A stretch of DNA of 25,675 nucleotides, from positions 1 to 25,675 of the forward strand of contig JBKOZA010000578.1 of assembly GCA_046725675.1 (NCBI GenBank). Reading direction: 5' to 3'. The translations under genes were made by a program, and so were the position numbers. The notes under the pieces are model-generated. The model saw only the letters and a program-made list of their open reading frames with translations, had not been told where the DNA came from and searched no databases. This stretch comes from Candidatus Methylomirabilota bacterium (GTDB lineage: Bacteria; Methylomirabilota; Methylomirabilia; Rokubacteriales; CSP1-6). Shown here piece after piece: positions 3,976 to 19,838 of this stretch (position 1 is its first letter; each line of letters opens with the position of its first letter).

Positions 3976-5562
3976 ATGCGTGCTCTCGCCTCACGGTTGG
4001 TGGGTGGAGTCCTGGTGCTGGGCCTGGTGGCGTCGCTGGTGCCGGCGGCGACCGCGCAGAAGCGGGGCGGCACCCTGACGATCGTCCGCCCGACCGATCC
4101 CGTCTCGCTGGACCCCAACCTCGAGACCACGGCCCCGGGCGCCTGGGTGTACTTCAACATGCTCGAGGGACTGCTGACGCTCGACGACAAGATGCAGGTC
4201 AAGCCGGCCCTGGCGACCTCTTATGAGGTGCTGTCGCCGACCAAGGTGCGCTTCAAGCTGCGCCCCAACGTGAAGTTCCACGACGGGACGCCCTTCAACG
4301 CCGAGGCGGTGAAGTTCACGTTCGACCGCGCCCTCAAGGGCTCGCCCCCGGCGCGCTGGGCGAGCCTGGCCGGTTCCCTCGATCACGCCGAGGTGGTGGA
4401 CCCCCTCACCGTCGACGTCGTGACCAAGGAGCCGTACGGGCCGATCCTCCGCACGCTGGCCATGTACTGCGTGGGGATCGTCTCGCCCACGGCCGTGCAG
4501 AAGCTCGGGCAGGACTTCAGCCGGGCGCCGGTCGGGACCGGCCCGTTCAAGTTCGTGGAGTGGAAGACCAACACCCACGTCATCGTCGAGCGATTCAACG
4601 ACTACTGGGGTGACAAGGCGCTGGTCGACCGCGTGATCTTCAAGGTCGTGCCCGAAGAGGGCGCGCGGATGATCGCGCTGCAGACCGGCGATGCCGACAT
4701 GGTGCTGTTTCCCTCGCCTGCCCAGCTGCCGGCGCTGCGCAAGGATGCTAAGTTCACGGTCCACGAGACCACCGGCATCCGGGTCGTCTTCGCCGGCCTC
4801 CACGCGGGAATGCCGCCGCTGGACGACGTCCGGGTACGCCAGGCGCTGCTGCATGCCGTCGACCGCAAAGCGATCCTCGACAACATCATGGAGGGCTCGG
4901 CCGGGCCGGCGCTGGGCGTGCTGGCGCCGGGCGTGTTCGGCTACAAGGACATGCAGCTCGACAAGGTCTATCCCTTCGACCGGGCCCGGGCCAAGGCCCT
5001 GCTGGCCCAGGCCGGCTGGACGCCCGGTCCCGACGGGATCCTCCAGAAGGGCGGACAGCGGCTTTCGCTGTCGTGGCTGGCGGCCCGCGGCCGTTACCCG
5101 AAGGATGGCGAGATCACCGAGGCCATCCAGGCCATGTTCAAGGAGGTCGGCGTCGAGGCCAAGGTGCAGATCCTGGAGTGGGCGGCGGTGTTCAAGCAGG
5201 TCCGCGAGGCCACCCTCAATCACCACATGTTCACGCTGGGCTGGGTGACCTCGAACGCCGACGCCGACTACTCGCTCTACGCGCTGTTCCACAGCAAGCA
5301 GACGCCGCCCACCGGCTGGAACACCTCCCGCTACGCCAACGCCCGGGTCGACGCGCTGGTCGAGCAGGCCCGCCGCAGCCTGAACCAGACCGAGCGCGAA
5401 AAGCTCTACGGCGAGGTGCAGGACATCCTGGTCAAGGAGATGGTGTGGATCCCCGTCTACACGACCAAGGAGATCATCGTCTCGCGGGCCAGCGTGAAGG
5501 GATTTCACGTCCACCCGGTCGAGTACAACCTGGCCCTCTGGAAGACCTGGCTCGACAAGTAA
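3976..5562 (+). CDS. ABC transporter substrate-binding protein, family 5 (DppA/GsiB-like), Sec signal peptide
   Basis: Signal peptide ending ATA-Q, SLDP, KPALATS, LRPNVKFHDGTPFNAEAVKF, PVGTGPFKFVEW. AGGAG SD in the end of the upstream gene. Confidence 0.92.
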   Translation: MRALASRLVGGVLVLGLVASLVPAATAQKRGGTLTIVRPTDPVSLDPNLETTAPGAWVYFNMLEGLLTLDDKMQVKPALATSYEVLSPTKVRFKLRPNVKFHDGTPFNAEAVKFTFDRALKGSPPARWASLAGSLDHAEVVDPLTVDVVTKEPYGPILRTLAMYCVGIVSPTAVQKLGQDFSRAPVGTGPFKFVEWKTNTHVIVERFNDYWGDKALVDRVIFKVVPEEGARMIALQTGDADMVLFPSPAQLPALRKDAKFTVHETTGIRVVFAGLHAGMPPLDDVRVRQALLHAVDRKAILDNIMEGSAGPALGVLAPGVFGYKDMQLDKVYPFDRARAKALLAQAGWTPGPDGILQKGGQRLSLSWLAARGRYPKDGEITEAIQAMFKEVGVEAKVQILEWAAVFKQVREATLNHHMFTLGWVTSNADADYSLYALFHSKQTPPTGWNTSRYANARVDALVEQARRSLNQTEREKLYGEVQDILVKEMVWIPVYTTKEIIVSRASVKGFHVHPVEYNLALWKTWLDK

Positions 5563-5587
5563 TCGTGCGGGCTGACGGGGGCGGCGG

Positions 5588-6511
5588 ATGCTGACGTTCG
5601 TGGTCCGCCGCCTCCTGCTGGCCGTCCCCGTGCTGCTCGGCGTGGTCTTCGTCGTCATGCTGACCGTCGATCTACTGCCTGGCGACGCGGTGACGCTCAT
5701 GCTCGGCGAGCACGCCACCAAGGACGCCGTCGCCCGCCTGCGCGATCACCTCGGCCTCGACAAGCCGTTCCTGGTCCGCTACCTGGATTACGTCGGACGG
5801 GTCGCCCGCGGGGATCTCGGCCGCTCGATCCAGCAGAACCGGCCCGTCGGCGACGAGCTGGCCGACGCCTGGCCGGCCACGCTCCAGCTCACCGTGGCCG
5901 CCCTGCTCGTCGCCACCGTGGTCGGCCTGGCGGCCGGTATCACCTCGGCGGTGTGGCCCAACTCGCTCTTCGACGCGATGGCGCGCCTGGGCTCGCTGTT
6001 CGGGCTGTCGATGCCCGTCTTCTGGACGGGCCTGGTGCTGATCGTCGTGTTCGCGCTGTGGCTCAACTGGCTGCCGGTGGGCGGCGCCGGCTCGCTCGGC
6101 CACCTCGTGTTGCCGACGGTCACGCTGGCGCTGCCGTCGGTGGCGATGATCGCGCGCATGACGCGCTCGGCCGTGCTGGACGTCCTCCGCGAGGACTACG
6201 TGCGCACCGCCCGCGCCAAGGGGGTGGCCGAGCCGTGGGTGCTGGCCCGCCACGCGCTGCGGAACGCGTTCATCCCGATCCTCACGCTGCTGGGCCTGCA
6301 GTCGGGCCAGCTCATGGGCGGCGCCGTGCTGACCGAGACGGTCTTCGCCTGGCCGGGCCTGGGACGGTTGATGGTCAAGGCGATCTTCGCTCGCGACTAC
6401 GTGCTGCTACAGGGCGCCGTGCTCGTCTTCGCGCTGGCGTTCGTGGTCATCAACCTGCTGGTCGATCTCTCCTACGGCCTGCTCGACCCCCGCGTCGGGC
6501 GTCAGGGTTGA
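5588..6511 (+). CDS. dppB: Peptide/nickel ABC transporter permease (DppB-like)
   Basis: LLPGDAV...LGLDKP...GDLGRS N-terminus and EAA loop DYVRTARAKG. Ends DLSYGLLDPRV. Confidence 0.92.
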   Translation: MLTFVVRRLLLAVPVLLGVVFVVMLTVDLLPGDAVTLMLGEHATKDAVARLRDHLGLDKPFLVRYLDYVGRVARGDLGRSIQQNRPVGDELADAWPATLQLTVAALLVATVVGLAAGITSAVWPNSLFDAMARLGSLFGLSMPVFWTGLVLIVVFALWLNWLPVGGAGSLGHLVLPTVTLALPSVAMIARMTRSAVLDVLREDYVRTARAKGVAEPWVLARHALRNAFIPILTLLGLQSGQLMGGAVLTETVFAWPGLGRLMVKAIFARDYVLLQGAVLVFALAFVVINLLVDLSYGLLDPRVGRQG

Positions 6512-6584
6512 GGATGATCACGCGGGTTCTCGGCCCGATCGTCGGGCACCGGAGCCCTGCGCAGGCGCCCCGACGGCAAATCTG

Positions 6585-7418
6585 ATGGACGCCTGGGGGC
6601 GGTTCCGGCGCAACCGGCTGGCGCTGATCGGCCTGGCCCTGGTGGCCGTGCTCGCGGCCAGCGCGGTGCTGGCGCCGTGGCTGGCTCCCTACGATCCCGC
6701 TCGCCAGAGTCTGATCGAGAAGCGCGCCAAGCCCGGCGGCAAGTACGTGCTCGGCGCCGACGAGTTCGGGCGCGACATCCTGTCGCGCGTCATCTACGGC
6801 TCGCGCGTGGCGCTGCTGGTCGGGCTGCTGTCGGCGGCGATCGCCGTCGCCGGTGGCCTGCTGCTGGGCACGCTGGCGGGTTTCAGCGGCGGCTGGCTCG
6901 ACGCCCTCCTCATGCGCGGCATCGAGATCCTGCTGGCCTTCCCGTACCTGCTGCTGGCGCTGGCCATCGTCGCCGCGCTGGGGCCCGGCGCGCTGAACAC
7001 CACGATCGCGGTCGGCATCTGGGGAGTGCCGGCGGTGACGCGCATCGTGCGCGGCTCGGTCCTGGCGCTGCGCGAGACCGAATACGTCGGCGCCGCCCGG
7101 GCGCTCGGCGCGCCCGTGTTCGCGCTGCTGCGCCGTCACATCCTGCCCAACATCGTTCCCGGCCTCATCGTCTACGCCACGCTGTTCATGGCCAACGCGA
7201 TCTTGCTCGAGGCCGCGCTGTCGTTCCTGGGCCTGGGTGTGCAGCCGCCGACCGCGTCCTGGGGGCTGATGGTGTCGACCGGGCGTGACGTGCTGCTGGT
7301 GGCGCCGCACGTGGCGACCGTCCCCGGCCTGGCCATCATGCTGACGGTGCTGGCGTTCAACTTCGTCGGCGACGGCCTGCGCGACGCGCTGGATCCCCGT
7401 CTTCGGGGGAGCGGGTAG
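6585..7418 (+). CDS. dppC: Peptide/nickel ABC transporter permease (DppC-like); 5' end possibly frameshifted
   Basis: LGADEFGRDILSRVIYGSRV, EYVGAARALG, HILPN, SFLGLG..PP..SWG, GDGLRDALDPR. Confidence 0.92.
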   Translation: MDAWGRFRRNRLALIGLALVAVLAASAVLAPWLAPYDPARQSLIEKRAKPGGKYVLGADEFGRDILSRVIYGSRVALLVGLLSAAIAVAGGLLLGTLAGFSGGWLDALLMRGIEILLAFPYLLLALAIVAALGPGALNTTIAVGIWGVPAVTRIVRGSVLALRETEYVGAARALGAPVFALLRRHILPNIVPGLIVYATLFMANAILLEAALSFLGLGVQPPTASWGLMVSTGRDVLLVAPHVATVPGLAIMLTVLAFNFVGDGLRDALDPRLRGSG

Positions 7419-10610: not shown

Positions 10611-10712
10611 TCAGTCCGCCACGGCCGGGCGCAGCCGCTCGCTGGTGCCGAGCGTGATCCGCGGGACCTCGATGGGGCGGCCGTAGTGGGGCACGCACAC
10701 GCCGAGCTTCAT
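10611..10712 (-). pseudogene. 33-aa remnant resembling an internally deleted LLM-class (luciferase-like) oxidoreductase
   Basis: MKLGVCVPHYGRPIEVPRITLGTSERLRPAVAD*. The N-terminus resembles the first beta-strand of LLM proteins and the C-terminus resembles their ending (E..RPA). It has its own promoter and stops 1 nt before the deacetylase ATG. Confidence 0.55.
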
Positions 10713-10720
10713 GGCCCGGC

Positions 10721-10749
10721 AGGGTATACTCGCCGGCGGCCCGGGGCAA
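10721..10749 (-). promoter_or_regulatory. Sigma70-like promoter of the LLM-remnant/deacetylase/SDR/thiolase/DUF35 operon
   Basis: Minus strand TTGCCC-N17-TACCCT ending 8 nt before the ATG at 10712, so near-leaderless. Confidence 0.4.
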
Positions 10750-12936: not shown

Positions 12937-14481
12937 ATGCCAGCGTCCCGCCGTCAGTTCCTGAAGACGTGCGCAGTCGTCTCCGGGGTCCCGCTCCTGG
13001 GTCTGGCACCGCGTGCCGCCCGGGGCGACACGCCCAAGAAGGGCGGCACGCTGCGCGTGGGCTTCTACATCGAGGCGGCCACGATGGACCCGCACCTGTC
13101 GGGCAGCAAGATCGACCGTCAGGTCTACCACAACATTTACGAGCCGCTGGTGACGCTGGACACCTCGCTCGGCATCCGCCCGGGCCTGGCCGAGTCGTGG
13201 GCGCAGCCGGATTCCCGGACCCTGGTCTTCAAGCTGCGGCGCGGGGTCAAGTTCCACGACGGAACCGAGTTCAACGCCGAGTCGGCGAAGTTCAATTTCG
13301 AGCGCATGAAGAGCGAGCCGAAGTCGGTGCGCAAGGGCGAGGTGGCCAACATCGACACCGTCGAGGTCGTCGACGCCCATACCCTCAAGGTCAACCTCAA
13401 GAAGGCGGACGCCGCGCTGCTGGCCACGCTGACGGACCGCGCCGGCATGATGGTCTCCCCCAAGGTCGTGCAGGAGCGCGGCGCCGAGCTGCAGCGGAAC
13501 GCCCGCGGGGCCGGCACCGGCCCCTTCGAGTTCGTGGAGTGGGTGAAGGACTCCCACCTCGTCATCAAGCGCAACGACGCCTACTGGAACAAGCAGGGTG
13601 GCCCCTACCTAGACCGCGTCCGCTACCGTCCCATTCCCGACGACGTGGTCAAGCTGCAGAGCCTGCAGTCGGGCGAGATCGACGTGATGGACTACGTGCA
13701 GCCGCGCGACGTGGCCGCGGTCAAGGCCGACAAGAACGTCGTCGTGGTCGACGTGCCGTCGCTGGCCGACTTCGCCTATCAGCTCAACCACACCCGGCCG
13801 CCGTTCAACACCAGGGCCCTCCGCCAGGCGGTCGCCTACGCGCTCGACATCGAGCAGATCGTCAAGGGCGTGTGGCTCAACGTCGGCGTGCCGGCTAACG
13901 GCCCCATCCCGCCCACGAGCTGGGCCTACGACAAGTCGATCCCGCCCATCAAGCGCGACCTGGCCAAGGCCAAGGCCAAGCTGGCCGAGGGGGGCCAGCC
14001 CAACGGGTTCGCCTTCACCCTCACGACGAACAACATCCCCATCAACATCCAGGAGGCCGAGGTCATCCAGGCCCAGCTCCGCGAGGCCGGCATCACCGCC
14101 AAGGTGAAGCTGGTCGACTCCGCCACCCTCATCTCCGAGGGCAACGCCAAGAACTTCGAGATGATCAGTTACCAGTGGAGCGGCCGTCCCGACCCCGACG
14201 GCAACATCTACCAGTTCTTCCGCACCACACCCGGGACTTCTCTCAACTGGTCGGGGATCTCGAATCCACAGCTGGACGCGCTGCTCGACCGAACGCGCGA
14301 GGTCTCCGGCCAGGCCGAGCGCCGGAAGCTCTACGGCGAGGTGACGAAGCTGCTGCAGGACGAGCTGCCGATGGTGTTCATCATCCATCCCATCGAGCCC
14401 AAGGCCTTCTCTCCGCGCGTGCAGGGCTACGAGCCCATCCCCGACGGGATGATGCGGTTCAAGGACGTGTGGCTGAGGTAA
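12937..14481 (+). CDS. ABC transporter substrate-binding protein, family 5, Tat signal peptide
   Basis: MPASRRQFLK twin-arginine motif, TMDPH, PGLAESW, LRRGVKFHDGTEFNAE, GTGPFEFVEW. AGGAGG SD. Confidence 0.92.
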   Translation: MPASRRQFLKTCAVVSGVPLLGLAPRAARGDTPKKGGTLRVGFYIEAATMDPHLSGSKIDRQVYHNIYEPLVTLDTSLGIRPGLAESWAQPDSRTLVFKLRRGVKFHDGTEFNAESAKFNFERMKSEPKSVRKGEVANIDTVEVVDAHTLKVNLKKADAALLATLTDRAGMMVSPKVVQERGAELQRNARGAGTGPFEFVEWVKDSHLVIKRNDAYWNKQGGPYLDRVRYRPIPDDVVKLQSLQSGEIDVMDYVQPRDVAAVKADKNVVVVDVPSLADFAYQLNHTRPPFNTRALRQAVAYALDIEQIVKGVWLNVGVPANGPIPPTSWAYDKSIPPIKRDLAKAKAKLAEGGQPNGFAFTLTTNNIPINIQEAEVIQAQLREAGITAKVKLVDSATLISEGNAKNFEMISYQWSGRPDPDGNIYQFFRTTPGTSLNWSGISNPQLDALLDRTREVSGQAERRKLYGEVTKLLQDELPMVFIIHPIEPKAFSPRVQGYEPIPDGMMRFKDVWLR

Positions 14482-14484
14482 CGC

Positions 14485-15429
14485 TTGGCGCGGCTCGTCC
14501 TGCAGCGCCTGGCCGCGACGGTGCCCGTCCTGCTGCTGGTCACGGCCGGCGTGTTCGCGCTCCTGCACCTCACGCCCGGCGACCCCATCGACGCCATGAT
14601 GGCGGAGTCGGTCGACGCGGTCGCCAAGGCCAGCCTCCGCGCCGAGCTGGGCCTGGACCGCCCGCTGCCCCTGCAGTACGCGGCGTGGATGGGACGGCTG
14701 CTGCGCGGCGACCTCGGGCGCTCGATCCGCAACGGCGAGCCGGTCCTCGAGAGCGTCAGCCGGCGCCTGCGCCCGAGCCTGCAGCTGGCGCTGCTGGCCA
14801 TGGGCGTCTCGCTGCTCATCGCCTTCCCCGCCGGTATCGTCTCCGCCGTGCGCCGCAACACCGCCGCCGACCGCGTCTCCACCACGCTCGCGCTGTTCGG
14901 CATCTGCATGCCCAACTTCCTGCTCGCCCTGCTCCTCATCTTTCTCTTCGGCGTGACGCTCCGCTGGCTGCCGATCTCCGGTTACGTCGATCCGGCCGAG
15001 GAGCTGGTGGACGGGCTGCGCTCGCTGGCCCTGCCGGCGGTGACGCTCGGCCTGGCCCTGGCGGCCGTCGTCACCCGAACGCTGCGCTCGAGCATGCTGG
15101 AGGCGCTGAGCGAGGACTACGTGCGCACGGCCCGGGCCAAGGGCCTGCCCGAGGGACGGGTGATCCGCGGCCACGTGCTCCGCAACGCGCTGATCCCGGT
15201 GGTGACCGTGCTGGGCCTGCAGCTCGGCACGCTGATCGGCGGCGCCGTCATCACCGAGTACGTGTTCGCCCTGCCCGGGGTCGGCCGTCTCGTCGTGGAC
15301 GCGGTGTTCGCTCGCGACTACCCGCTGGTGCAGGGCGTCGTGCTGCTCATCGCGCTGGGCTTCATCGCCAGCAATCTCCTCGTCGACCTGCTCTATGGCG
15401 TCATCGATCCCCGCATCCGCCATCGCTGA
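14485..15429 (+). CDS. dppB: Peptide/nickel ABC transporter permease (DppB-like)
   Basis: TTG start, LTPGDP, LGLDRP, GDLGRS, EDYVRTARAKG, DLLYGVIDPRI. Confidence 0.92.
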   Translation: MARLVLQRLAATVPVLLLVTAGVFALLHLTPGDPIDAMMAESVDAVAKASLRAELGLDRPLPLQYAAWMGRLLRGDLGRSIRNGEPVLESVSRRLRPSLQLALLAMGVSLLIAFPAGIVSAVRRNTAADRVSTTLALFGICMPNFLLALLLIFLFGVTLRWLPISGYVDPAEELVDGLRSLALPAVTLGLALAAVVTRTLRSSMLEALSEDYVRTARAKGLPEGRVIRGHVLRNALIPVVTVLGLQLGTLIGGAVITEYVFALPGVGRLVVDAVFARDYPLVQGVVLLIALGFIASNLLVDLLYGVIDPRIRHR

Positions 15430-16264
15430 CCGCCGGTGGGAGGTGCTGCGGCGCGCGGCGGGGGCCCGCCTGGCGCCGCTCGGCGCCGTCGTGCTGGCGG
15501 TGACCGTGGTCGTCGCGCTGGCGGCGCCGGTGGTCGCGCCCCACGATCCGCTCCGGCAGGATCTCGGCAACGCGCTGGCCCGACCCGGTCGCGCGCACTG
15601 GCTCGGCACCGACAACGTCGGCCGCGACGTCCTCTCGCGCGTGATCTGGGGCACGCGCGTGTCGCTGGCAGCTGGTTTCGTCTCCGTGGCCCTGGCCGCC
15701 CTGTCCGGCAGCCTGCTGGGTATCGTGGCCGGCTACGCGGGGGGGCGCGTGGAGGGCCTGGTCATGCGGCTCATGGACGCGGTGCTGTCGTTTCCGCCGC
15801 TCGTGCTGGCACTGGCGCTCGGCGCGGTGCTGGGCGCCGGCCTCGGCGGCGTCCTCGTCGCGCTCGGCGTCGTGTACACGCCGACGTTCGCGCGCCTGAT
15901 GCGCGGCCAGGTGCTGGCCGTCAAGGCGCGCGACTACGTCGAGGCCGCCCGTGCGCTCGGCGCGCCGGCCTGGCGCGTGGCCTGGCAGCACGTGCTGCCG
16001 AACGCGGCCACGCCGATCGTGGTGCAGGCCTCGCTCAGCGTGGCCTTCGCCATCCTGGCCGAGGCCTCGCTGTCCTTCCTGGGGCTGGGCATCCAGCCAC
16101 CGGAAGCGTCGTGGGGCAGCATGATCAACGCCGGCCGCGGCTACCTGCAGCAGGCGCCCTGGATCGTCTTCGCCCCGGGCGCGGCCCTCTTCGTCACCGT
16201 CGTCGGGCTGAACTTCCTGGGTGACGCCGTCCGCGACGCCCTCGACCCGCGCGCCCGCGGCTAA
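15395..16264 (+). CDS. dppC: Peptide/nickel ABC transporter permease (DppC-like); start uncertain (15395 or 15443)
   Basis: HWLGTDNVGRDVLSRVIWGTRVS, DYVEAARALG, HVLPN, SFLGLGIQPP, GDAVRDALDPR. Confidence 0.9.
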   Translation: MASSIPASAIADRRWEVLRRAAGARLAPLGAVVLAVTVVVALAAPVVAPHDPLRQDLGNALARPGRAHWLGTDNVGRDVLSRVIWGTRVSLAAGFVSVALAALSGSLLGIVAGYAGGRVEGLVMRLMDAVLSFPPLVLALALGAVLGAGLGGVLVALGVVYTPTFARLMRGQVLAVKARDYVEAARALGAPAWRVAWQHVLPNAATPIVVQASLSVAFAILAEASLSFLGLGIQPPEASWGSMINAGRGYLQQAPWIVFAPGAALFVTVVGLNFLGDAVRDALDPRARG

Positions 16265-16280
16265 TCCTCCGGCGGCGCGA

Positions 16281-17588
16281 TCACACGGCCGGCACGCCGC
16301 CCAGCACGTCTCGACTGAGCTCGGCGTGCTTGGCCCAGCCGCGACGGAGCTCGGCCGTGGCCTCGATCCAGTTGGCCTCTTGCGGCAGCACGACGCCCCC
16401 CGAGCGCACAGCGTAGACCTCGGGGTTGTCGACGCCGGGCGGGACCTGACCGCGGTCACGGAGCGCCTTGGCCGCGTCGATGAGCCTCTTGCGGGTGCGG
16501 ATGACCATCGCGTCGCTGGTGCCGAGCCGCTCCTGCGTACGATCGAAGATCGGCCCCATGCTCTCGGTGGCCGCCTGATCCTGCAGGAAGATGCTGCCGA
16601 TGCCCGTGAAGCTGTCGCGCTTCTGCAGCGCGCGGTCGATCAGGTAGTCGTTGCCCGCGTTGGCGACGGCGCGGAAGCGACCGTACCAGTCGGTGGTATT
16701 GGGCAGCGTCTCCACCGGCGTCACGGTCTGGCGTCCAGCCTTGGCCGTCCCCCGCGGCAGCCGACCGATGGTGATCGCCAGCGTGTGCTCGTCGTCCATC
16801 GGCACCCAGCAGCGCGCACGCACCTCCAGCCCGAGGACGCCGGTGGGCACCATGGCCCAGAACGGAAACAGGAAGTTGGCGATGCGCCAGTAGCTCGTGC
16901 CCGGCTCGGCCGGACGGCAGGCTCCGTACATGACCCCGGAGTCCGTTTCGACCACCTCGTACTTCGGCGCCCGGCGGCCGAGGGCGTAGCGGGCCCAGGT
17001 GCCGGGCGCCGCATCGTCGGCCTGCACCGCGCCCAGGTGCAGGAAGACCGTGTGGCCGGTGTCGATGTCACCCTCGAGCGCCTGCATCCAGTTGCACTCG
17101 CGCTGGTAGACCTGCACGCCGCCCTCGGGCGTCATGTTGGCCTCCAGCTCCGGCAGCGGCGGCGGCGTGGCCCGCGGGCCGAGATAGGCCCACACGAGTC
17201 CGCCCCGCTCGAGGCACGGATAGGCGACCGCGCGCACCTTGTGCTTGAACTCGCTCTCGGCCGGCTCGCTCGGCATTTCTATGCAGCGGCCGGTCACGTC
17301 GAATTTCCAGCCGTGGTACACGCAGCGCAGCCCCTCGTCCTCGTTGCGACCGTAGAAGAGGCTGGTACCCCGATGCGGGCAGTGGTTCTGGATCAACCCG
17401 ACGGCCCCGGAGGTCGTCCGGAAGGCGATGAGGTTTTCGCCGAGCAGTCGGATGCGCAGCGGCGGCCCCTCGCGCTCGGGCAGCTCGCTCGACAGCGCCG
17501 CCGGGATCCAGTACTGACGCATGAGGTGGCCCATCGGCGTGCCCGGCCCGACGCGGCACAGCAGCTCGTTGTCCTCACGGCTGAGCAT
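16281..17588 (-). CDS. Rieske non-heme iron oxygenase alpha subunit (phthalate 4,5-dioxygenase/LigXa family)
   Basis: MLSREDNELLCRVGPGTPMGHLMRQYW N-terminus, Rieske CPH...CVYH, mononuclear Fe motif EGDIDTGHTVFLH...QD, C-terminal E.LGTSD. GGAGG SD. Confidence 0.92.
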   Translation of the reverse strand: MLSREDNELLCRVGPGTPMGHLMRQYWIPAALSSELPEREGPPLRIRLLGENLIAFRTTSGAVGLIQNHCPHRGTSLFYGRNEDEGLRCVYHGWKFDVTGRCIEMPSEPAESEFKHKVRAVAYPCLERGGLVWAYLGPRATPPPLPELEANMTPEGGVQVYQRECNWMQALEGDIDTGHTVFLHLGAVQADDAAPGTWARYALGRRAPKYEVVETDSGVMYGACRPAEPGTSYWRIANFLFPFWAMVPTGVLGLEVRARCWVPMDDEHTLAITIGRLPRGTAKAGRQTVTPVETLPNTTDWYGRFRAVANAGNDYLIDRALQKRDSFTGIGSIFLQDQAATESMGPIFDRTQERLGTSDAMVIRTRKRLIDAAKALRDRGQVPPGVDNPEVYAVRSGGVVLPQEANWIEATAELRRGWAKHAELSRDVLGGVPAV

Positions 17589-17612
17589 GGGCGGTCCCTC
17601 CAGGAACCGACC

Positions 17613-17637
17613 GTATCACAGTGCCGCGGTATGATAC
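17613..17637. promoter_or_regulatory. Inverted repeat overlapping back-to-back -10 boxes of the divergent Rieske genes
   Basis: GTATCA-N13-TGATAC. Plus-strand TATGAT at 17630-17635, and minus-strand extended -10 TGa-TACGGT near 17610-17618. Confidence 0.45.
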
Positions 17638-17653
17638 CGGGCGGGACGCGACG

Positions 17654-18877
17654 ATGCTCAGCGCCGAGGACAACGTCACCCTGACCCGCGTGGGCCGCGG
17701 CACGCCGCTGGGCGAGCTGATGCGGCGCTACTGGCAGCCGATCGCCGCGGTCGCCCAGCTGGACGAGCACCCCACGCGGCCCGTCCGCCTCATGGGCGAG
17801 GACCTCGTGCTCTACCGCGACACCGGGGGAGGGTACGGCCTCCTCGACCGCCACTGCGCCCACCGGCGCGCCGATCTCGCCTACGGGGTCGTCGAGGCGT
17901 GCGGGCTACGCTGCCACTACCACGGCTGGCTGTACGATGCGATCGGCCGCTGCCTGGAGCAGCCGTTCGAGGAGGCCGCGCGGCCGGAGGCGCGCTTCAA
18001 GGACAAGATCCGGCTCGCGGCCTACCCGGTCGAGGCCAAGGGGGGACTGCTGTGGGCCTACCTCGGGCCGCCGCCGCCGCCGCTGGTCCCCGACTGGGAT
18101 CTCTTTCATCAGCCCGGGTACAAGCAGATCGTGTTCTCCGAGATCCCCTGCAACTGGTTCCAGGGCCAGGAGAACTCGATCGACCCGGTCCACTTCGAGT
18201 GGCTGCACTCCAACTGGTCGGCCGCCCAGCGGGGCGACCGGTCGCGCGCGCCGCGCCACCTGAAGCTGGCGTTCGAGGAGTTCGAGTGGGGCTTCACCTA
18301 CCGGCGCGTGCGGGAAGACACCACGGAGGACGACGAGCTGTGGACGGTCGGGCGTGTGTGCCTGTGGCCCAACTGTCTCTACACCGGCAAGTTCGAATGG
18401 CGGGTGCCGGTCGACGACGAGCACACGCTGCACGTGGCGTGGTTCAACGACCCGGTGCCGGGGACGGCGCCGTTCGAGCAGGCGCGCATCCCGTACTGGT
18501 ACGGCCCGATCCGCCATCCCGAGACGGGGCGCTGGATCACCAGTCACATCATGAACCAGGACTTCGTGGCCTGGATCGGCCAGGGCGCGGTCGCCGACCG
18601 CACGAAGGAGCATCTCGGCGAGAGCGACCGCGGCGTCATCCTGCTGCGCCGGCGCATGCTGGAAGAGGCCGGCATCGTCGGCCGCGGCGGGGATCCCAAG
18701 GCGATCGTCCGCGACGCCGCCAAGAATCATCGCCTGCCACTACCGACGATTCGCGAGGGTCGGGGCGCGCCGCAGCGGCCGCCCGACGGGCCCCGCCCGA
18801 TGATCTTTCACGCCGGCCAGCCACCAGAGATCGTCGACGAGATGAAGCGCATCTGGGCCGAGCGCAGCGGAGGCTGA
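17654..18877 (+). CDS. ligXa: Rieske oxygenase, LigXa-like (5,5'-dehydrodivanillate O-demethylase oxygenase-like)
   Basis: RPVRLMGEDLVLY, CAHRRAD...CHYH, QGQENSIDPVHFEWLH, WITSHIMNQDFVAWIGQG, DPKAIVRD. These closely match my recollection of Sphingobium SYK-6 LigXa. The substrate is not proven. Confidence 0.8.
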   Translation: MLSAEDNVTLTRVGRGTPLGELMRRYWQPIAAVAQLDEHPTRPVRLMGEDLVLYRDTGGGYGLLDRHCAHRRADLAYGVVEACGLRCHYHGWLYDAIGRCLEQPFEEAARPEARFKDKIRLAAYPVEAKGGLLWAYLGPPPPPLVPDWDLFHQPGYKQIVFSEIPCNWFQGQENSIDPVHFEWLHSNWSAAQRGDRSRAPRHLKLAFEEFEWGFTYRRVREDTTEDDELWTVGRVCLWPNCLYTGKFEWRVPVDDEHTLHVAWFNDPVPGTAPFEQARIPYWYGPIRHPETGRWITSHIMNQDFVAWIGQGAVADRTKEHLGESDRGVILLRRRMLEEAGIVGRGGDPKAIVRDAAKNHRLPLPTIREGRGAPQRPPDGPRPMIFHAGQPPEIVDEMKRIWAERSGG

Positions 18878-18884
18878 CCCCGCC

Positions 18885-19838
18885 ATGGCCACTCTGGTCG
18901 GTGTCTTCGCAATGTCCCACAGCCCGTTCTGCTACATGCCCGCCGAGCGCTGGAACGACGTGCGGGTCTCCCGATCCCTGCGGGCCGACGTGCCCTTCGA
19001 CGACGTGGAGTCGAACCGGACGAAGGCGGCCCGCGTCGCGGCCGCGTTCGCCTCCCTGAAGGGCCGGCTGGCGGCGGCCGCCCCCGACGTCATCGTCGTC
19101 TTCGGCGACGATCAGCTCGAGTGCTTCGACTTCCGCAATTACCCGGCCTTCGCCATCTACGCCGGCGAGAAGTTCCACGGCAGCCTCGCCGGCGGCGGCA
19201 GCGCCGGGGTGCCCGGTCACCCGGGGCTGGCGGCGGCGCTGCTCACCGGGCTGCTGCATCGCGGCTTCGACCCGGCGTTCTCGCTCGACATGCCGAAGCC
19301 CGACCGTGGCATCGGCCATGCCTTCCTGCGTCCCGCCGAGTCGCTCACCGACTTCGGCACGCCGATCGTGCCGGTGCTGCTCAACTGCTACTACGCGCCG
19401 CAGCCGACGGCGACGCGCTGCTACCAGCTCGGCGTGGCCGTGCGCGAGATCATCGACGCGCACCCGGGCGACCTGCGCGTCGCCGTCGTCGGCTCCGGGG
19501 GTCTCTGGCACACCCCACGGGCGAAGGACGCGTATCTCGACGAGACATTCGATCGAGCTATCCTGAGCTTCATGACGGCCGGCGACGCCCGCGGCATGGC
19601 GCGCTACTTCGACGACTACCGGATCCCCGCCGGCGACGCCAGCCAGCTGGTCGGCGCTCCGGGCCCGGGGACGACCGGGCTACCCGACACCGCGGGGCCG
19701 CGGGGAGGGACCCGGGAGACGTGCAACTGGGTCGCGGCCGCCGCCGTCGCCGCCGGCACCCCGGGTGCGGTTCTGGACTACGTGCCGATCTACGCGTCGC
19801 CGATCGGCGCCGCCTTCGCGGCCTGGGAGATCCGCTAG
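18885..19838 (+). CDS. Class III extradiol ring-cleavage dioxygenase (LigZ/DesZ-like)
   Basis: SHSP, GDDQLECF, GHAF, QPTATRCYQLG, VAVVGSGGLWH, GTRETCNW, LDYVPIY. 7 nt after the LigXa-like gene. Confidence 0.85.
   Translation: MATLVGVFAMSHSPFCYMPAERWNDVRVSRSLRADVPFDDVESNRTKAARVAAAFASLKGRLAAAAPDVIVVFGDDQLECFDFRNYPAFAIYAGEKFHGSLAGGGSAGVPGHPGLAAALLTGLLHRGFDPAFSLDMPKPDRGIGHAFLRPAESLTDFGTPIVPVLLNCYYAPQPTATRCYQLGVAVREIIDAHPGDLRVAVVGSGGLWHTPRAKDAYLDETFDRAILSFMTAGDARGMARYFDDYRIPAGDASQLVGAPGPGTTGLPDTAGPRGGTRETCNWVAAAAVAAGTPGAVLDYVPIYASPIGAAFAAWEIR

Follow-up and report, generated by a model that had tools for sequence, protein, structure and literature searches.

A conserved pair of LigXa-type Rieske oxygenase and LigB-superfamily dioxygenase genes in soil Methylomirabilota

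Degradation of 5,5'-dehydrodivanillate (DDVA) has been described in Sphingobium (Parasphingobium) sp. SYK-6, whose published gene cluster comprises ligXa, ligZ, ligY and a gene for a TonB-dependent receptor (PMC6874591). LigXa is the DDVA O-demethylase, LigZ is the OH-DDVA oxygenase, and the LigY hydrolase defines the biphenyl route; DesZ, with which LigZ shares sequence motifs, is a 3-O-methylgallate 3,4-dioxygenase. Known DDVA uptake combines a major facilitator superfamily (MFS) transporter with a TonB-dependent receptor (PMC6874591), and in SYK-6 the genes for the electron-transfer partners of LigXa lie away from ligXa (PMC12997858). Here, we analyze a 25,675-nt stretch of DNA (hereafter the window), which is contig C578 (JBKOZA010000578.1) of a 2.9-Mb, 72% complete metagenome-assembled genome (MAG) of a Candidatus Methylomirabilota bacterium (GCA_046725675.1). 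Two consecutive genes on its forward strand encode R2, a LigXa-family Rieske non-heme-iron oxygenase, and LB, a divergent class III (LigB-superfamily) extradiol dioxygenase. The pair is conserved across three genera; a search for LigY orthologs in this MAG and in the near-complete genomes of five relatives with the same pair gave none. We lean, with modest confidence, toward reading R2 and LB as a two-step operon, in which a LigXa-type Rieske monooxygenase would yield a catechol and an extradiol dioxygenase of a novel subfamily would cleave its ring.

The R2–LB gene pair

R2 occupies positions 17654-18877 of the forward strand and is the first gene of the conserved core. It encodes 407 residues, and homologs of the same length are consistent with an ATG at 17654. 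An AlphaFold model of R2 (pLDDT 77, pTM 0.81) compared with the Swiss-Prot models has SYK-6 LigXa (G2IN04) as its top match, with 54% identity and a template-modeling (TM) score of 0.89 over residues 1–402 (419 aligned columns). R2 is nearer to this enzyme than to any other characterized oxygenase (54% versus ≤31%), the next characterized matches being PobA (31%), Pht3 (30%), MdpJ (27%) and CbaA (26%). The Rieske residues Cys68/His70 and Cys87/His90, the bridging Asp177 and the pair His180/His185 are invariant across 26 homologs, and the Rieske and iron-site residues align with the corresponding residues of phthalate dioxygenase (PDO). The R2 clade also retains 131 of the 138 columns (95%) that are near-invariant in LigY-linked LigXa homologs, at a mean identity of 56% to those homologs versus 62% among them. 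By sequence and by its predicted fold, R2 is a genuine LigXa-family oxygenase and probably an aryl O-demethylase. The resemblance to Sphingobium LigXa proposed in a first-pass annotation of this DNA is borne out; R2 differs from its SYK-6 counterpart in phylum and in family subclade.

R2 reaches no NCBIfam curated model at its cut-off. The automatic JGI/IMG annotation labels homologs of R2 ‘5,5'-dehydrodivanillate O-demethylase’, so at the level of annotation the LigXa-type assignment was already in place, and the ‘undescribed’ pathway of the first-pass annotation overstated its novelty. The Pfam model LigXa_C (PF19301) was considered as a guide to LigXa likeness and set aside, as it matches R2 partially (45 bits) and matches full length (114 bits) the phthalate-dioxygenase-like protein R1 encoded next to it. 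In R2, where Pfam also identifies a Rieske domain, and in a LigXa-like protein from Sphingopyxis, the LigXa_C match covers only model positions ~204-259.

LB (18885-19838, forward strand; 317 residues; PF02900, 78 bits) is the second core gene. Its ATG lies 7 nt past the R2 stop codon; the spacer, at 18878-18884 of the same strand, reads GGAGGCTGACCCCGCCATG, and a GGAGG sequence lies 12–16 nt upstream of the start, inside the end of R2. By fold, LB is closest to DesB, the β subunit of LigAB and MhpB, at 20–23% identity, with the best structural TM scores (0.64–0.69) to the gallate dioxygenase DesB and the protocatechuate 4,5-dioxygenase LigAB. A profile alignment with LigB equates LB His209 with the catalytic His195; His12, His209 and Glu278 are invariant, Glu278 being the equivalent of the Glu iron ligand. 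LB differs from these enzymes by the lack of an α subunit or C-terminal domain, and by the invariant Gln77, which takes the place of the iron ligand His61 of LigB. The same glutamine (window 19113-19115, in a GDDQ motif) also aligns with His59 of DesB and is present in all LigZ/DesZ-type proteins examined; judging from the alignments, the whole group formed by LB and these proteins may have a metal site unlike that in the solved enzymes. The top 30 matches of a Swiss-Prot fold search with LB were only LigB and MhpB entries; LigZ and DesZ are possibly missing from that library, so the search was not used as evidence.

The first-pass annotation had read LigZ/DesZ signatures in LB, and all four motifs (G.DQ.E.F, QPT..RC, GT.E..NW and LDYVP) are indeed there. 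In the form GxDQxExF, QPxxxRC, GTxExxNW and DYVP, they are common to LB and to LigZ/DesZ-type proteins, represented by 24 LigB-family proteins encoded next to LigXa-like genes; where LB has DDQ, three canonical LigB-family paralogs of this MAG read NDH or DDH. The LigXa-adjacent LigB-family genes found elsewhere fall into two groups, A and B, from which the 24 are drawn, and some smaller ones. JGI labels homologs of one group A member, from the Sphingopyxis locus L074 described below, ‘OH-DDVA oxygenase’ or ‘OH-DDVA oxygenase/3-O-methylgallate 3,4-dioxygenase’. The motifs do not extend to identity with LigZ or DesZ: LB is 26–32% identical to the proteins of groups A and B, differs from LigZ/DesZ-type proteins by extra insertions around the catalytic histidine, and is placed by a maximum-likelihood tree in a clade of 9 rows (100% support) on a long stem of 1.43, outside the clade (32 rows, 95% support) to which all LigZ-type proteins belong. 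This tree compares LB with proxies, namely homologs labeled by KEGG orthology (KO) and the L074 gene, in place of the SYK-6 LigZ and DesZ proteins themselves. By sequence, then, LB is orthologous to neither LigZ nor DesZ and belongs to a separate deep clade. This subfamily is small, with ~52 cluster representatives at E ≤1e-30 among 1.84 billion, none of them characterized; LB attains no NCBIfam subfamily cut-off, and JGI labels most of its homologs ‘hypothetical’. Distant members (50–54% identity) are likewise found among aromatic-catabolic genes; in one case a Rieske oxygenase gene comes immediately after. A 52%-identical relative at L095 3317-6234 lies between aldehyde dehydrogenase and RidA-family genes, in a layout that resembles aminophenol meta-cleavage operons.

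Conservation of the pair was assessed across 151 Methylomirabilota genomes, this MAG included. Orthologs of LB (at least ~70% identity) are present in 11 genomes, all of one family, and orthologs of R2 (≥78% identity) in 12, nine of which have LB adjacent to R2 or within 1.7 kb of it. Another 19 genomes have nothing closer to R2 than a match at 67–71% identity, and none of them has an LB ortholog. Adjacency is retained across three genera at 71–85% protein identity and is also seen on contigs L006, L009, L010 and L089. The proposal that a LigXa-like gene is coupled to a LigZ-motif gene 7 nt downstream thus corresponds to a conserved, tightly spaced pair. The conserved core is R2–LB because, when the genomes are compared gene by gene, neither R1 nor the ABC importer genes beyond it travel consistently with the pair. 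In relatives, LB is followed by a gene of the VOC/glyoxalase fold and then, on the opposite strand, by a set of SDR, Rieske, luciferase-like and Amidohydro_2 genes; neither is in the window. In one genome of the same genus (G043:C47:6883-10711), a TAG lies in frame within the LB ortholog, and ~1.7 kb separates this gene from R2, an arrangement that may reflect insertion into the pair or its decay.

The LigXa family and the LigY step

A scan of one genome per species returned at least 594 loci with R2 relatives, of which the best 80 were examined. The R2 relatives in these 80 are 52–89% identical to R2, SYK-6 not being among them, and come from Methylomirabilota, Chloroflexota, Dormibacterota, Actinomycetota, Eremiobacterota/Vulcanimicrobiota, Acidobacteriota, Rhodothermota and many Proteobacteria. 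A LigY-like gene (≥40% identity) lies within 10 kb of the LigXa-like gene at 21 of the 80, a lower bound given that contig ends interrupt some loci; Burkholderiales, Acidobacteriota and Dormibacterota are among the lineages in which the two occur together. LigB-family genes that share the motifs of LB are found within 10 kb of the LigXa-like gene at ~31 of the 80 loci and within 1.5 kb at ~18. Because such pairs recur in the loci of other phyla, the combination of oxygenase and ring-cleavage enzyme is a recurrent design. MetE-like (Meth_synt_2) genes occur near LigXa-like genes at two loci, in the flanks of L003 and L005.

In these comparisons LigXa was represented by the Swiss-Prot fold match G2IN04, and LigY and LigZ by proxies from one locus, L074 6047-19149, in a Sphingopyxis sp. 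MAG (NZ_CBDIIL010000002.1). L074 combines genes for a TonB-dependent receptor, a LigXa-like protein, a LigY ortholog and a LigZ-type dioxygenase, which agrees with the content of the published SYK-6 cluster (PMC6874591). Its Amidohydro_2 protein aligns with the solved LigY structure 5VN5 from end to end, at 562 bits, and a LigB-family gene of 337 codons lies directly 3' of this LigY ortholog. The locus looks like a DDVA-type cluster outside SYK-6. L074 also holds an RraA/aldolase-like gene, and genes resembling those of the gentisate pathway (bicupin, FAA hydrolase, GST) are interspersed among the rest.

The Methylomirabilota locus has a different content. Near R2 there is no LigY, no LigZ ortholog and none of DdvR (MarR), DdvK (MFS) and DdvT (TonB-dependent receptor), which accompany the DDVA genes of SYK-6 (PMC6874591). 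The absence of LigY and of electron-transfer genes from the window had been remarked on in the first-pass annotation and holds, no LigY-like gene and no gene for an electron-transfer partner being encoded there; in the latter respect R2 is like SYK-6 ligXa. The genome-wide search for ligY that it had called for yielded no ortholog in the 72% complete MAG, where the best match to the L074 proxy is 29% identical over 200 residues. Nor was a LigY ortholog found in five 92–100% complete relatives with R2–LB, whose best matches (~30% identity, ~70 bits) are at the level of generic Amidohydro_2 paralogs; genuine LigY clusters elsewhere have proteins 40–70% identical to the proxy. The Amidohydro_2 genes that lie a few kb from LB in relatives were considered as stand-ins for LigY or LigW and discarded: their products resemble PtmU3 and DitZ, and score 23 bits against LigY and ~50 bits against LigW. 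In a tree of the LigXa family, R2 falls in a clade of 19 rows from Chloroflexota, Methylomirabilota, Dormibacterota and Actinomycetota, in which a LigY-like neighbor occurs at a single locus. With no LigY ortholog in the MAG or its five near-complete relatives, and with the adjacent dioxygenase outside the LigZ-type clade, the full DDVA pathway suggested earlier for this locus is not supported.

What R2 and LB may do together

In the two-step reading that we favor, R2 would receive electrons from a reductase and ferredoxin encoded elsewhere and would most likely hydroxylate an aryl methoxy group, releasing formaldehyde and leaving a catechol. LB, as an Fe(II) extradiol dioxygenase, would then open the catechol ring. 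The substrate, which sequence alone cannot name, is probably an aromatic carboxylate of the guaiacyl (methoxy-hydroxy) type. One candidate electron source for both R2 and R1, judged by its gene content, is contig C419 of the same MAG (L091 21-4489), where a paralog of R1 (68% identity) is followed by a BenC-type Fer2-FAD-NAD reductase gene and a Rieske-type ferredoxin-like gene. Beside these reductase and ferredoxin genes, C419 carries a divergently oriented HpaB-type hydroxylase gene.

Several observations weigh against this reading. R2 and LB are not always found together: three of the 12 genomes with an R2 ortholog lack LB, contigs L001 and L090 also carry R2 orthologs without it (78–80% identity, the three sampled genomes included), and LB orthologs occur without R2 on L007 and L008. 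The R2 clade has Lys at position 246, where LigY-linked homologs invariably have His. To our knowledge, a single LigXa-family member has been characterized, and because of this the O-demethylase chemistry of R2 is extrapolated across 46% sequence divergence. The replacement of the LigB iron ligand by Gln77 leaves the predicted metal site of LB uncertain. Expression adds little: a soil metatranscriptome holds one near-identical contig of 171 nt inside LB, with a single mismatch, the remainder being 90–95%-identical fragments from relatives, and a second RNA run has no match to the stretch. These data are too weak for a claim of transcription or co-transcription. A promoter scan of the DNA returned no sigma-70-like sites, and the terminator-like matches fall inside genes.

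Other explanations of the pair differ in the chemistry that they assign to R2 or in whether they link the genes at all. R2 might attack a non-methoxylated aromatic acid by ring hydroxylation or angular oxygenation, as phthalate, chlorobenzoate or phenoxybenzoate oxygenases do, with the catechol formed directly or through a dehydrogenase and then cleaved by LB. The next-nearest characterized relatives of R2 include the dioxygenases PobA, Pht3 and CbaA (26–31% identity), functions shift readily within the superfamily, and the neighboring R1 retains the carboxylate-binding arginines of phthalate dioxygenase. We nevertheless regard this as rather unlikely, since the 54% identity of R2 to LigXa is far above that to any dioxygenase and the window has no adjacent gene for a dihydrodiol dehydrogenase. 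A true DDVA (5,5'-biphenyl) pathway would have R2 demethylate DDVA and LB cleave OH-DDVA, with a non-orthologous hydrolase, for example an Amidohydro_2 paralog, in place of LigY. The identity to LigXa, the 95% of LigY-linked conserved positions kept by the R2 clade, the LigZ-type motif set of LB and the 32 Amidohydro_2 matches in the MAG all fit such a route. The canonical pathway is unlikely because its LigY hydrolase step has no ortholog: the closest proteins in the MAG (29%) and in the relatives (~30%) fall short of the 40–70% seen in real clusters. The version with a substituted hydrolase is also quite improbable in our view, as the Amidohydro_2 products near LB in relatives are of PtmU3/DitZ type, LB lies outside the clade of the LigZ proxy, and LigY linkage in the subclade of R2 is 1 in 19.

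It is also conceivable that R2, LB and R1 are chance neighbors in an oxygenase-rich genome and share no pathway. The MAG does hold four LigXa_C-type Rieske genes and five LigB-family genes, and orthologs of R2 and of LB each stand alone in some genomes. Against chance speak the 7-nt spacer with a ribosome-binding site inside R2, the adjacency kept across three genera at 71–85% protein identity, and the independent appearance of the same family pairing in other phyla, which make this explanation very improbable indeed. The two-step operon is the most likely of these readings. A broader proposal is that soil Methylomirabilota degrade lignin-derived methoxylated aromatic acids, possibly including 5-5 biaryls, without LigY, through a LigXa-type O-demethylase and an uncharacterized LigB subfamily, with R1 as a second entry point in this genus; taken as a whole, we consider it unlikely to hold.

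Neighboring genes, host genome and wider meaning

R1 (16281-17588, reverse strand; 435 residues) belongs to the phthalate/isophthalate-dioxygenase clade of Rieske oxygenases and combines a Rieske domain with the full-length LigXa_C match noted above. Its matches in the PDB, over a full-length alignment, are RO_CH34 (7FHR, 345 bits), isophthalate dioxygenase (9INA, 313 bits) and the phthalate 4,5-dioxygenase PDO_KF1 (7FJL, 270 bits); no NCBIfam curated model is reached at its cut-off. Arg200, Arg225 and Arg235 of R1 align with Arg207, Arg231 and Arg244 of PDO_KF1, which bind the phthalate carboxylates (PMC8649396), and the bridging Asp is also retained. What sets R1 apart from PDO_KF1 is that it matches best to RO_CH34, an oxygenase for which neither phthalate nor isophthalate is a substrate (PMC8649396), that it has Thr in place of PDO Ser179 and Ser182, and that no reductase gene adjoins it in the window. 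The alignment suggests that R1 acts on an aromatic carboxylate, whose identity it does not fix.

R1 and R2 are divergently transcribed across a 65-nt spacer (17589-17653) that contains an imperfect GTATCA-N13-TGATAC dyad. Two relatives (L006 6715-6777; L009 9937-10000) retain the spacer at 88% conservation and read GTA(T/C)CA...TCATAC, so the palindrome is imperfect there. Orthologs of R1 flank R2 only in the genus of the window itself (g1, four genomes) and are on other contigs in another genus; on L008, an R1 ortholog is divergent from LB and R2 is absent. R1 is therefore a lineage-specific companion of the core pair and in this genus may supply the route of the pair or a related one. The family and divergent orientation assigned earlier to this second Rieske oxygenase were correct; its place in a common module was not upheld, adjacency being limited to one genus.

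The importer genes comprise an SBP_bac_5 solute-binding protein (12937-14481; PF00496, 310 bits) and two Dpp/Opp-type ABC permeases (14485-15429 and 15395-16264; both Pfam BPD_transp_1), all on the forward strand. They converge on R1, from which they are separated by a 16-nt gap. The N-terminus of the solute-binding protein, SRRQFLK, is a canonical twin-arginine (Tat) motif, and its best NCBIfam models (GsiB, NikA, Opp4A and DppA) all score far below their cut-offs. The permeases also have N-terminal domains typical of DppB/OppC-type permeases, and their best NCBIfam models are nickel, oligopeptide and glutathione permeases. The set resembles Dpp, Opp, Nik and Gsi importers in these components but differs from them in that no ATPase gene for it is encoded in the window, where the two ATPases of a Dpp/Opp-type set are thus missing, in that no curated cut-off is reached, and in that there is no evidence for an aromatic ligand. 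A second SBP_bac_5 gene with two permease genes lies at 3976-7418, and it too lacks an ATPase gene, as does the set at 12937-16264; both sets presumably depend on ATPases encoded elsewhere.

Genes, Tat motif and orientation of the importer are thus as first described. Its inclusion in the module is rejected on synteny: it adjoins R1 in G043, G144, L009 and L089, its adjacency being limited to part of one genus; in L006 the interval from the T2SSE gene to R1 lacks it; and in three of five relatives (G031, G068 and G035) the orthologs of the solute-binding protein (83–89% identity) are on contigs other than that of R2–LB. We regard it as a peptide/nickel/opine-type SBP_bac_5 system that is probably not part of the module.

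Mapping by open reading frame (ORF) listing and Pfam/NCBIfam scans placed every gene described in the first-pass annotation at the positions it had given. The genes discussed here are flanked upstream by a T2SSE ATPase gene and downstream, on the opposite strand, by a gene for a membrane protein with a spermidine-synthase-like domain. On L089 (329-1243), from a close relative, an intact gene for a 304-residue luciferase-like monooxygenase lies between a polysaccharide deacetylase gene and the T2SSE ATPase gene, a position that corresponds to window ~10611-10749; the synteny fits a deletion of this gene in the present MAG. The window has a high G+C content of 65–75%. A Rokubacteria-like soil organism had been surmised as the host, and this agrees with the names carried by close homologs (Methylomirabilota or Candidatus Rokubacteria) and with near-identical copies of the stretch in metagenomes of soil or rhizosphere (at least 19 runs). 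With its 32 Amidohydro_2 (PF04909) matches and the LigXa_C-type Rieske and LigB-family genes counted above, the MAG is strongly expanded in aromatic and decarboxylase-type families for a genome of 2.9 Mb at 72% completeness.

Surveys of soil metagenomes already use the ligXa KO as a marker for the breakdown of lignin or recalcitrant carbon (bioRxiv 10.1101/2025.07.03.663048). LigXa-family genes (≥52% identity) occur in many phyla, and about one quarter of the loci examined, a lower bound, carry the LigY gene that defines the biphenyl route; the ring-cleavage partner of LigXa-family genes varies by lineage. Because LigY accompanies them at only about this fraction of loci and the partner varies, a ligXa match need not mean DDVA degradation. 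For a soil phylum that is uncultured and widespread, R2–LB provides a concrete example, open to experiment, of a LigXa-type enzyme that works in another pathway setting.

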